Below, piece after piece: positions 18,293 through 20,205 of a stretch of DNA of 64,000 nt. Both the position numbers and the translations under genes were made by a program. Below the pieces are notes generated by a model that worked only from the letters and a program-made list of their open reading frames with translations, was not told where the DNA came from and ran no database searches. This stretch comes from Escherichia phage CCU7, in the sequence record PV806175.1; one strand, written 5' to 3'. The first letter of the stretch is position 1. Every line of letters starts with the position of its first letter.

Positions 18293-18661
18293 ATGAAAAT
18301 CAATCTGAACTCATACATCAAATGTAAAGACCACGACGGTTATAAAGCTATCGAAATTAAAGAATTCCAGTGGATGTTATACAAAGAGCAATTTGAGTTC
18401 GTAAGTTGTATGACCCCTGAAGGTCCTTCAAATGATTTCTCTTGGAAAATTGTGTTAGCAAACTTTTTCACAGGTGACACATACGAATTAAAAACTATTA
18501 TTACCGGTAAAATTCGCTCAGAAACATATGTTGACGAAGAAACTGGTTACTCTGAAGATGTTACATGGTATCAAAATGGACGCATTACAGCAGATAACCT
18601 GATCGAAAAAATGAAAGCCAAAGGTGTTTTAAATTTAGACAATTGGATTAAAGTTGCATAA
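18293..18661 (+). CDS. hypothetical protein (30.x region)
   Basis: 122-aa ORF with own early promoter (18223) and ggagaataaaATG RBS. Confidence 0.5.
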   Translation: MKINLNSYIKCKDHDGYKAIEIKEFQWMLYKEQFEFVSCMTPEGPSNDFSWKIVLANFFTGDTYELKTIITGKIRSETYVDEETGYSEDVTWYQNGRITADNLIEKMKAKGVLNLDNWIKVA

Positions 18662-18665
18662 AACA

Positions 18666-18694
18666 GTTTACTTTGGTACAGGATATGTTATTAT
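18666..18694 (+). promoter_or_regulatory. T4-type early promoter
   Basis: gtttac-17nt-tattat; -10 bracketed by inverted repeat ggtacagg/cctgtacc (18675-18705). Confidence 0.55.
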
Positions 18695-18735
18695 ATACCT
18701 GTACCAACAAACAACTTAAACATCTGGAGAATAAA

Positions 18736-19101
18736 ATGAACTACATCAACTTCGAACGTAAATATGTTTCTAACGGTATCGCTGGTTCTTCTGAAGTTAT
18801 TTGCTTATGGAAACACGAAAACGGTACAGTTTGTGAAATCGAACAGTGCATGACTCCTAATTATGTTTATATGCGATTTGAAAATGGCATCACGGTTTCA
18901 ATCACGATGGAAGGTTCAAATTTTAAAATTGCATTAGATGATGATTTCCGTCAGCGCGATTTAGGTACTCATCCTTGCTGGAATGGTGTTAATCGTAAAC
19001 TTCTGGTTAAAACCTGGATTCGTCATATCCTGAGTAACCGAGCTAAACCTGAACATCTCGAAGCAATCTTTGATGTAGTTCTTAATGAATTTGATATCTA
19101 A
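18736..19101 (+). CDS. hypothetical protein (30.x region)
   Basis: ORF trimmed to ATG 18736 after ggagaataaa RBS; 121 aa; own early promoter (18666). Confidence 0.5.
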   Translation: MNYINFERKYVSNGIAGSSEVICLWKHENGTVCEIEQCMTPNYVYMRFENGITVSITMEGSNFKIALDDDFRQRDLGTHPCWNGVNRKLLVKTWIRHILSNRAKPEHLEAIFDVVLNEFDI

Positions 19102-19136
19102 ATTAATTGGGAGCTTCGGCTCCCAGTGAGGAAATT

Positions 19137-19751
19137 ATGTTTAAAGTTAATACTTTTTATAAAATGAATTTTAAAAATGGGGATATTACTCCACGCCTTA
19201 AAAACATGTTCTCATATGACCTTATCAAGCCTTTTGAAGTTTTAGAAGTTACTGATGCTGGCTCGGTTTGTGAAATTAGAACTTCTGAAGGTAAAATTTA
19301 TCAGGCAGGTGTTGGTAAATTCAGTAATTGTTTTACTTTAATATTCTCGACCGATTTAGATGAGCATTTTATTGAATGTCCTAACCCTAAGGTCTATGAA
19401 GTTCCACATCAAGAAATTAAGAAAAATGGCCCGCACGAATATACGAAGGTTGAAACTCCTCACGGCGTGATGTGGCGTCATAACTCTCCTTTTGGAAGTA
19501 AAGGAACATTTGCTCAACCGTCTAAACCGTATGACGATGAAAAATACATCGTCGTCTTTTTATCTGAACAGGGTACTCAAGACCGTGGATGCCAACGTTC
19601 CGGATTATTGAGTGAACTCGAAGCTCATAACCAAGCACGTGAATTCGTTGAGAAAAATCCTGGTTCTGAAGCTCTAGTCATGAAAGCAATTACTCAATAT
19701 ATCACTGCTCAACCTGTTGTTCATCCGGTGGAAATTAATTTCGTTAAGTAG
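19137..19751 (+). CDS. hypothetical protein (30.x region)
   Basis: ORF trimmed to ATG 19137 after gaggaaatt RBS; 204 aa. Confidence 0.5.
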   Translation: MFKVNTFYKMNFKNGDITPRLKNMFSYDLIKPFEVLEVTDAGSVCEIRTSEGKIYQAGVGKFSNCFTLIFSTDLDEHFIECPNPKVYEVPHQEIKKNGPHEYTKVETPHGVMWRHNSPFGSKGTFAQPSKPYDDEKYIVVFLSEQGTQDRGCQRSGLLSELEAHNQAREFVEKNPGSEALVMKAITQYITAQPVVHPVEINFVK

Positions 19752-19781
19752 TTTACATCCAAGGACGGATTAGAGTATAAT
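19751..19781 (+). promoter_or_regulatory. T4-type early promoter
   Basis: gtttac-19nt-tataat upstream of ORF 19806. Confidence 0.5.
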
Positions 19782-19805
19782 GATTTCTTTAGCAAGTGGA
19801 AAAAT

Positions 19806-20003
19806 ATGAAATTTTTAATAGCACAAACAGTCCAATTAAAAGGTGTTGGAATCCCTGGGATGATTTTTAAAGTTCTCCATGAATTTAAAACCGCCGCCGT
19901 AATTATCAATGAAGCGTATGCTGTTCAATGGGTTGATGGGACTTCTGACATACGTATGGGTAAAGAGTTATCTCCTATTAAAGGGTTGAAACATGTTGAA
20001 TAA
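19806..20003 (+). CDS. hypothetical protein
   Basis: 65-aa ORF downstream of early promoter 19751. Confidence 0.35.
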   Translation: MKFLIAQTVQLKGVGIPGMIFKVLHEFKTAAVIINEAYAVQWVDGTSDIRMGKELSPIKGLKHVE

Positions 20004-20205
20004 ACTAATCCAGAAATTGTTTGGTACAGAAATGATCGAAGTTACTTATCGTGTAACTGACTGCTCGCCTATTCATCCACAGGATGAACCATTTATCAAG
20101 ACAATTAAAATGCTTAAAAATGACGGTGGTTTATCTATTGAAGACCGTCTGCCTAGTTACGGCCATTGGGCTGATGTTGAAATTATAAGTGTTAAAGATG
20201 TCTGA
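19993..20205 (+). CDS. hypothetical protein
   Basis: 70-aa ORF. Confidence 0.35.
   Translation: MLNKLIQKLFGTEMIEVTYRVTDCSPIHPQDEPFIKTIKMLKNDGGLSIEDRLPSYGHWADVEIISVKDV

Follow-up and report, generated by a model that had tools for sequence, protein, structure and literature searches.

A probable T-even early gene cluster between rIII and the DNA ligase gene of Escherichia phage CCU7

Bacteriophage T4 carries a block of small early genes between rIII and its DNA ligase gene, and this block is the closest described counterpart of the locus considered here: five adjacent open reading frames (ORFs) in Escherichia phage CCU7 (sequence record PV806175.1), of which a stretch of 64,000 nucleotides (nt), hereafter the window, was analysed. 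In T4, the gene order, the flanks (rIII and 30.9 before; 30.3, 30.2, 30.1, and ligase after), and the relative strand are all as in CCU7, as are the early promoters, the terminator after 30.9, and the GGAGAATAAAA ribosome sites. The two blocks differ, however, in that 30.8 of CCU7 is strongly diverged and 12 amino acids (aa) longer than its T4 counterpart, in that the slot of T4 30.6 (95 aa) is taken by an unrelated gene, 30.6A, and in that T4 has no promoter before 30.5. For 30.6A, the described counterpart is gp30.6A of phage TuIa (CAF21717, record AJ621579), to which the CCU7 protein is 97.5% identical over 204 aa. In TuIa, too, the stop codon of 30.7, a UUCG hairpin, and a GAGG site come before the gene, and 30.5 comes after it with an early promoter in between; these flanking elements (hairpin, ribosome site, and promoter) are the same or nearly so in both phages, but TuIa lacks 30.8.

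Two further systems bear on the regulation and evolution of such blocks. The first is the phage endoribonuclease RegB, which acts with ribosomal protein S1; the optimal site GGAGAAUAAAA is needed for efficient cleavage by the T4 enzyme (Durand et al., PMC1702504), the site consensus is GGAGRAYARAA (PMC3014915), and the T4 30.7 transcript is both a known target and a standard substrate (PMC9409239). T4 targets such as motA and 30.7 possess the exact 11-nt optimum within an early-gene initiation region that is predicted to be single-stranded, as is the case in CCU7. In CCU7, these are predicted cleavage sites; Mosigvirus relatives with the same block encode a RegB that is ~77% identical to that of T4.

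The second is the promoter-early stem-loop (PeSL) model of gene shuffling in T4-like phages (Arbiol 2010, Comeau 2014; PMC2839356, PMC4122927), in which cassettes were found to recombine and form mini-circles in RB49 and phi1 (PMC2839356). A PeSL cassette consists of a stem-loop or terminator, an AT-rich stretch, a sigma-70-like early promoter (TTTACW, 17 nt, and TAYWAT in T4/PST), a Shine-Dalgarno sequence, and a start codon. Such cassettes are repeated before small non-essential genes, and gains and losses between relatives end at them, features that the CCU7 block shares. The regulatory layout of this block has been published before; in 2006, Truncaite et al. (Virology 344:378) reportedly described the terminator, early promoters, stem-loop, and RegB sites in 16 T4-type phages, TuIa and RB69 among them.

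Set against these systems, the five ORFs of CCU7 very probably form a conserved T-even early cluster—orthologues of 30.8, 30.7, 30.5, and 30.4 together with gp30.6A—located between rIII/30.9 and 30.3/ligase in a phage of the genus Mosigvirus, with early promoters, RegB shut-off, and small factors that bind host proteins. A preliminary description, made from the sequence without database searches, had placed five ORFs with no recognisable motifs between rIII and DNA ligase. Their coordinates and flanks agree with the ORF list, in which all five are on the plus strand; the claimed lack of motifs does not hold, as all five match PHROG families (none with an assigned function), two match Pfam families, and four have clear T4 orthologues. 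The five ORFs are real, already named genes, and four of them are widely conserved. That they are real genes follows from ratios of non-synonymous to synonymous substitution rates (dN/dS) below 1 for every ORF, compared with ATK47 and TuIa, and from their presence in 113–1037 phage records. Counted over 50,697 phage records, 30.8 occurs in 1037, 30.7 in 994, 30.5 in 735, 30.4 in 721, and 30.6A in 120 (T4-type 30.6: 832). The base composition of the five ORFs resembles that of the remainder of the window. Region 17400–21800 shares 99.9% identity with Escherichia phage PECP20 and 97.8% with ATK47, an RB69-like T-even phage of the genus Mosigvirus.

Gene 30.8 sits between 30.9 and 30.7, as expected of a member of PF06019 (Phage_30_8), and its product scores 148.8 bits against this family (cut-off 25), with residues 2–121 covering profile positions 3–123 of 124; it is 37% identical to T4 30.8 (NP_049822) by BLASTP, the program used for all identities to T4 proteins of this block and its neighbours, and its dN/dS against ATK47 is 0.15. 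The product of 30.7 scores 172.9 bits against PF06919 (Phage_T4_Gp30_7; cut-off 27), is 93% identical over 121 aa to T4 30.7 (NP_049821), and has a dN/dS of 0.02–0.13. The 30.5 product is 64% identical to T4 30.5 (NP_049819) over 64 of 65 aa (E = 7e-29 in a database of ten T4 proteins; phrog_1690, E = 8e-29), and its gene precedes 30.4 with overlapping ends, the position it holds in T4. The 30.4 product, encoded between 30.5 and 30.3, is 49% identical to T4 30.4 (NP_049818) over 68 aa (E = 3e-20 in the same database; phrog_2042, E = 1e-34). A literature search by gene number or accession returned nothing on 30.8, 30.7, or 30.4, the only match being a preprint on the defence protein bNACHT11 that is discussed below, and a sequence search of the PDB with 30.8, 30.7, and 30.6A gave just one chance-level match to a Tudor domain (E = 0.17). 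Homologues of 30.7 are labelled 'putative baseplate hub subunit' in two other records, a label supported by nothing found here.

Identity to T4 alternates sharply from gene to gene across 17983–21756. Among the neighbours of the block, 30.9 (96%) and 30.3 (97%) are nearly those of T4, and 30.2 (69%) and 30.1 (58%) are more distant; this mosaic pattern suggests, at the level of sequence, gene-sized recombination between T4-like and RB69-like lineages. Within 30.2, the N-terminal part is almost the same as in T4 and the C terminus is different. The public ATK47 record (KT184309, 2300–5600) leaves 30.8, 30.6A, 30.5, 30.4, 30.3, and 30.2 unannotated, and its DNA for 30.8 through 30.3 is 95%–100% identical to the window.

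T4 early promoters are characterised by GTTTAC or TTTACA at −35, a 16–18-nt spacer, TGn, a −10 box TAnnnT, and an A-rich upstream element, and three sites in the block, those beginning at 18222, 18666 (with TGn), and 19751, conform to this description by sequence. Sites of the form GTTTAC-N16–18-TANNNT number 12 in the window against 2.8 expected. P30.8 has an annotated equivalent in the TuIa record, P30.7 is nearly identical in T4, JS98, and SP18, and P30.5, the best sigma-70 match in the region, begins within the stop codon of 30.6A. It had been claimed that each of the first three ORFs possesses its own GTTTAC promoter. This is so for 30.8 and 30.7 but not for 30.6A, whose upstream region was found to hold only a ribosome site (GAGG) and a UUCG hairpin, and no promoter; the third promoter lies downstream of 30.6A and serves 30.5, and the TuIa record, in which the sequence is the same, annotates it likewise. 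P30.5 is found only in phages with 30.6A and is missing from T4, JS98, and SP18 because 30.6 there runs on into the start of 30.5. The terminator that precedes P30.8 is kept in 8 of 8 relatives compared: a hairpin with a T-run follows 30.9 in T4, JS98, SP18, PG7, KP179, kv_tblp2, and CkP1, with differing stem sequences, and the ATK47 record marks the hairpin as a terminator.

The ribosome sites of 30.8 and 30.7 likely double as RegB shut-off sites, by analogy with T4. They had been described as a strong ribosome binding site occurring twice, and both copies are indeed exact (18283 and 18726); the repeated sequence is, however, better read as a RegB cleavage site and hence as a shut-off signal. 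Both are letter-for-letter GGAGAAUAAAA, lie in translation initiation regions, and fit the GGAGRAYARAA consensus. Within the window, GGAGAATAAAATG occurs exactly at 18283, 18726, and 3740 and once with a single mismatch, making four copies against 0.22 expected. The 11-mer is kept ahead of 30.8 and 30.7 in T4, JS98, SP18, KP179 (which lacks 30.8), and kv_tblp2, standing directly before 30.8 in T4, JS98, SP18, and kv_tblp2. In CCU7, the 30.7 site is predicted to be unpaired in both the minimum-energy and centroid folds of 18662–18740; the 30.8 leader has a weak predicted fold (z = 0.09) that pairs part of GGAG.

From the sequence and the published T4 work, the block would operate as follows. 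Host sigma-70 RNA polymerase would start right after infection at P30.8, P30.7, and the lineage-specific P30.5, downstream of the 30.9 terminator. The 30.8 and 30.7 messages would then be translated in a short burst before RegB and S1 cut them inside the Shine-Dalgarno sequence, and 30.6A would be translated off read-through RNA from P30.7, using the GAGG site just after the conserved tetraloop hairpin. The five proteins would be small, dispensable factors, most likely binding host proteins; for 30.5, this draws on data published for the T4 orthologue, and for the other four we infer it. The coordinates of these features are collected in Table 1.

Table 1. Features of the early gene block of phage CCU7, its flanks, and related elements (positions are those of the window, except for the last row, in which copies in relatives are given by locus)
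Feature	Position	Strand	Description
rIII	17471–17719		upstream flank of the block
30.9	17983–18162		upstream flank
Intrinsic terminator after 30.9	18167–18190	+	GGGAGAC-UUCG-GUCUCCC, then T-run; −14.1 kcal/mol, z = −3.0
Putative early promoter P30.8	18222–18250	+	GTTTAC, then TACTAT; A-rich stretch upstream; pattern match
GGAGAATAAAA	18283–18293	+	30.8 ribosome binding site; exact optimal RegB/S1 cleavage site
30.8 orthologue	18293–18661	+	122 aa; PF06019, phrog_1507
Putative early promoter P30.7	18666–18694	+	GTTTAC, TGn, TATTAT (−10 at 18689–18694)
15-bp hairpin enclosing the P30.7 −10 box	18673–18707	+	−19.8 kcal/mol, z = −4.0
GGAGAATAAAA	18726–18736	+	30.7 ribosome binding site; exact optimal RegB/S1 site
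30.7 orthologue	18736–19101	+	121 aa; PF06919
UUCG-tetraloop hairpin, 30.7/30.6A gap	19106–19127 (core 19109–19124)	+	−15.5 kcal/mol, z = −3.5; no T-run after
GAGG ribosome site of 30.6A	19128–19131	+	directly after the UUCG hairpin
30.6A	19137–19751	+	204 aa; two domains; slot of unrelated T4 30.6
Putative early promoter P30.5	19751–19781	+	GTTTACA, then TATAAT; 11/12 consensus matches
30.5 orthologue	19806–20003	+	65 aa; phrog_1690
30.4 orthologue	19993–20205	+	70 aa; phrog_2042; start overlaps 30.5 end by 11 nt
DNA ligase	21753–23246		downstream flank, after 30.3, 30.2, 30.1
Copies of the ~135-nt gap element	L009:2559–2693, L004:1901–2035, L007:1710–1844, L006:2954–3088, L008:1484–1618		

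Several points weigh against this account of the cluster. Promoter activity and RegB cutting in CCU7 are extrapolated from T4, TuIa, and RB69, and the regB gene lies outside the window, being seen only in close relatives. Binding of a host protein, the polyphosphate kinase Ppk, is reported for a T4 30.5 that is only 64% identical to the protein encoded here, and in a preprint. The structural model of 30.6A is weak (predicted local distance difference test [pLDDT] 61, predicted template modelling score [pTM] 0.35), and its fold matches are generic small folds.

Between 30.8 and 30.7, an inverted repeat had been noticed around the −10 box of the promoter at 18666, and it stands: the arms GGTACAGG (18675–18682) and CCTGTACC (18698–18705) pair over 8 bp, extend to a 15-bp hairpin, and place TATTAT within the loop and 3′ arm. 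In P30.8 read-through RNA alone would this hairpin form, because P30.7 transcripts begin inside its 3′ arm. Nearly the same sequence is present in T4, JS98, and SP18. At the same place, kv_tblp2 has a 15-bp hairpin of unrelated sequence (z = −5.0), and PG7 (L007:3427–3505; z = −7.6) and CkP1 (L005:4404–4472; z = −3.5), both Karamvirus, have hairpins of 11–12 bp that pair the 30.7 promoter spacer with the GGAG ribosome/RegB site and differ from one another by compensatory changes. The occurrence of differing hairpins at one place in distant genera, together with the compensatory changes between PG7 and CkP1, argues for a selected structure. Its role may be that of a 3′ barrier protecting the 30.8 message; it could also control the ribosome site of long transcripts or, within a regulatory cassette prone to recombination, act as a site of exchange. 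For the PG7 and CkP1 hairpins, read-through RNA would conceal the GGAG site, and RNA started at the gene's own promoter would leave it open.

A second hairpin follows 30.7 in eight phages of five genera, in each case with a GC stem of 5–7 bp whose sequence differs between phages, a loop of UUCG, UACG, GAAA, or UUCA, and TGAGGAAA after it; the TuIa record annotates the hairpin between 30.7 and 30.6A as a stem-loop. A search of Rfam over 17300–20400 returned only chance-level matches.

The same elements can also be viewed as DNA. All parts of a PeSL cassette are found within 18167–18297, and 18222–18297 and 18666–18740 are direct repeats of ~75 nt that are 74%–78% identical. TuIa and KP179 lack exactly the gene that lies between them: in TuIa, the 30.9 terminator and P30.8 cassette run straight into 30.7, so that the loss of 30.8 ends inside the cassette, with the junction within a shared 15-mer, GGAGAATAAAATGAA, and in KP179, the 30.9 terminator and a promoter lead straight to 30.7. 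In SP18, a 116-aa, C-terminal-only 30.6A lies in the 30.9/30.8 interval, flanked by two terminator hairpins that resemble each other. The CCU7 arrangement differs from the PeSL model in that the P30.7 stem-loop encloses the −10 box instead of preceding the promoter and in that, at the 30.6A slot, a gene separates hairpin from promoter. The 30.8 gap in TuIa, the 30.6A position in SP18, and the exchange of 30.6 for 30.6A support PeSL shuffling in the T-even and RB69 lineages, and the promoter/ribosome-site cassettes and hairpins would then be the points at which genes of the block are gained, lost, and swapped between phages. It is possible, if somewhat doubtful, that the P30.7 inverted repeat and the 75-nt cassettes act mainly in this way, as DNA substrates for the recombination known from RB49 and phi1 (PMC2839356), rather than as RNA structures controlling expression. 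Hairpins of quite different sequence at the same position in kv_tblp2, PG7, and CkP1, with the Shine-Dalgarno sequence paired in the latter two, point instead to selection on RNA structure; the two levels are, moreover, compatible with each other.

Short palindromes are also present in the spacers of many of the other GTTTAC promoters of the window (9956, 11140, 12546, 14670, 25577, 38643, and 41495), for example CCACAAGGATTGTGG and CACATGGATGTGTG. A spacer palindrome looks like a general early-promoter feature in this phage and not one peculiar to 18666.

Does such exchange make the block an anti-defence island? The preliminary description had interpreted it as a rapidly exchanged set of accessory genes of the kind among which anti-defence proteins are often found. 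What remains of this interpretation is the picture of accessory genes, early and individually promoted, with no assigned biochemical function, and of a block whose make-up differs from one T-even genus to the next. As for rapid exchange, the 30.6/30.6A slot has been swapped and 30.8 is missing from TuIa and KP179, but four of the five genes are spread over several genera (721–1037 records each), and 30.7 matches its T4 orthologue at 93% identity. In synteny, the block keeps the T4 gene order apart from the replacement of 30.6 by 30.6A. The proposed check by remote homology and structure assigned 30.8 and 30.7 to Pfam families and all five ORFs to PHROG families; for 30.6A, the model was weak and the fold search gave no meaningful match. 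The observations of the preliminary description are therefore largely correct, save for the promoter assignment and the lack of motifs, and its interpretation is only partly supported: 'unknown ORFs' become named T-even genes, the third promoter is assigned to 30.5, and the 'strong' ribosome site to RegB shut-off.

It is unlikely that the block is a rapidly exchanged anti-defence island in which one or more of the five proteins inhibit bacterial immunity. Early expression from strong promoters would suit such a role, as would gene content that varies between genera with one swapped slot and the lineage restriction of 30.6A, whose family numbers one to four copies per block in T4-like phages of Klebsiella, Enterobacter, and Citrobacter. 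The distribution of four of the genes speaks against rapid exchange, however, and no sequence match to a characterised anti-defence protein was found for the five proteins in Pfam, NCBIfam, or PADLOC, searches that did not include dedicated anti-defence profiles; the comparison of folds, covering the weak 30.6A model only, likewise gave no meaningful match.

T4 30.5 is reported to co-purify with host Ppk, and its co-expression with bNACHT11, a nucleotide-binding leucine-rich repeat (NLR)-like defence protein, leads to cell death; T4 escapes bNACHT11 when 30.5 is deleted together with two other triggers (preprint, bioRxiv 10.1101/2024.12.17.629029). Since it is sensed by bNACHT11, T4 30.5 is a defence trigger and not an inhibitor. 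Its recognition fits the idea of defences that watch for phage effectors, but its sole reported partner is a metabolic kinase. Transfer of these properties to the 30.5 encoded here is plausible by analogy: the orthologue may bind host Ppk and may make the phage visible to bNACHT11-type defences. As it stands, then, the result for the block as a whole is a routine annotation of a cluster that is already catalogued.

Gene 30.6A is the one lineage-restricted gene of the block, and it constitutes the open lead, worth a knockout. Only ~8 related clusters are found among 1.84 billion representative proteins. The N-terminal 90 residues are related to phrog_8920, 622, and 3710 (E down to 1e-6) and to proteins of ~156–160 aa that follow 30.7 in PG7, KP179, and kv_tblp2. 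The C-terminal part has stand-alone homologues in SP18 and CkP1—where this domain occurs alone (116–152 aa) and elsewhere, between 30.9 and the following gene—and among metagenomic proteins; common to these homologues are KNGxHxYT, WKHNSPWG, and the loop GTQDRGCQRSG, whose Cys is invariant and which as a whole is nearly so among proteins that are 36%–47% identical overall. The protein and its relatives align as a single two-domain family, restricted to T4-like phages, of which Karamvirus, Jiaodavirus, and related phages have one to four copies in each block. Within these blocks, the relatives are uncharacterised proteins of ~145–180 aa (phrog_8920, 622, 3710, and 5804; PG7_222, KP179 gp041, CkP1_0224), often encoded immediately downstream of 30.7, with the same hairpin and GAGG site in front. 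They share with 30.6A an N-terminal small barrel domain and a C-terminal strand-helix-strand module (T.EEA...A..F..NP...A.IMK). Identity between 30.6A and these proteins is only 15%–30%, and 30.6A differs in possessing the GTQDRGCQRSG loop and an extra insert of ~45 aa (KNGxHxYT..WKHNSPWG).

Two other origins for 30.6A were considered and ruled out. It is not a diverged T4 30.6, despite the fact that both proteins start with MF and both genes lie behind the same hairpin: BLASTP gave no match between them, they belong to separate PHROG families (T4 30.6 is phrog_2153), and the hhalign probability is 0.0%. Nor are 30.8, 30.7, 30.6, 30.6A, 30.5, and 30.4 diverged paralogues, an idea prompted by shared CMTP and SVCEI strings, since comparison among the six families gave E ≥ 0.3 in permissive BLASTP and all-against-all hhalign probabilities of at most 2.7%.

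Structure prediction added little. The AlphaFold2 model had a useless pLDDT of 47 with a 7-sequence alignment, and the values given above were reached with 15 sequences. Foldseek searches of the PDB with this weak model returned nothing at E < 0.2, and a viral structure library yielded only uncharacterised T4-like phage proteins of 145–175 aa, from which no function was drawn. Our suggestion for this family is therefore a speculative one, offered at low confidence: 30.6A and its two-domain relatives, built from an SH3-like barrel and a small alpha/beta module, could be diversifying host-targeting effectors, possibly anti-defence or defence-triggering, with the Mosigvirus/TuIa subfamily having gained a new function through the 45-aa insert and invariant-Cys loop and with the genes having moved between slots by recombination at hairpin/promoter cassettes.

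It is very improbable that 30.6A is a decaying or accidental fusion ORF, carried without function between 30.7 and 30.5, for although it has no promoter of its own and few related clusters, and although its matches in vB_EcoM_SQ17 and vB_EcoM_G2469 consist of two joined pieces (the latter record being annotated with a truncated 115-aa product), the gene is full length in ~113 records, nearly all Mosigvirus, at 94%–99.5% identity, has a dN/dS of 0.17–0.34, is served by a good GAGG ribosome site that follows a conserved hairpin, and encodes two domains that both have homologues elsewhere, with a loop that is nearly invariant.

Inside 30.6A, at the border of the insert and the C-terminal module, 19531–19556 resembles a terminator, with a 9-bp stem followed by CTTTTTAT. 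Terminator-like sites in the region number 3 against 3.0 expected, and this one may be due to chance.

Upstream of the block, the gap between rIII and 30.9 (17720–17982 in CCU7) is non-coding, 164–398 nt long, and kept in 8 of 8 T-even relatives. In JS98, SP18, PG7, KP179, and kv_tblp2, the gap contains an element of ~135 nt whose sequence hardly varies across four named genera; with compensatory changes in three predicted helices and no match in Rfam, it is a candidate structured RNA. The element is missing from the window and from T4, and the gap of CCU7 folds ordinarily (z = −0.7). A match of 10 nt between the JS98-type intergenic element and the window, at 57355, was attributed to chance, as reading the sequence there revealed no extended similarity.

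Further upstream, an ORF of 330 aa at 15085–16077 encodes an aroG-like 3-deoxy-D-arabino-heptulosonate-7-phosphate (DAHP) synthase directly before dCMP deaminase (16077–16658). The corresponding gene in ATK47 is labelled 2-keto-3-deoxy-D-arabino-heptulosonate-7-phosphate synthase. As T4 carries cd.1 and cd.2 at that place, this lineage seems to carry the aroG-like ORF as an auxiliary metabolic gene.

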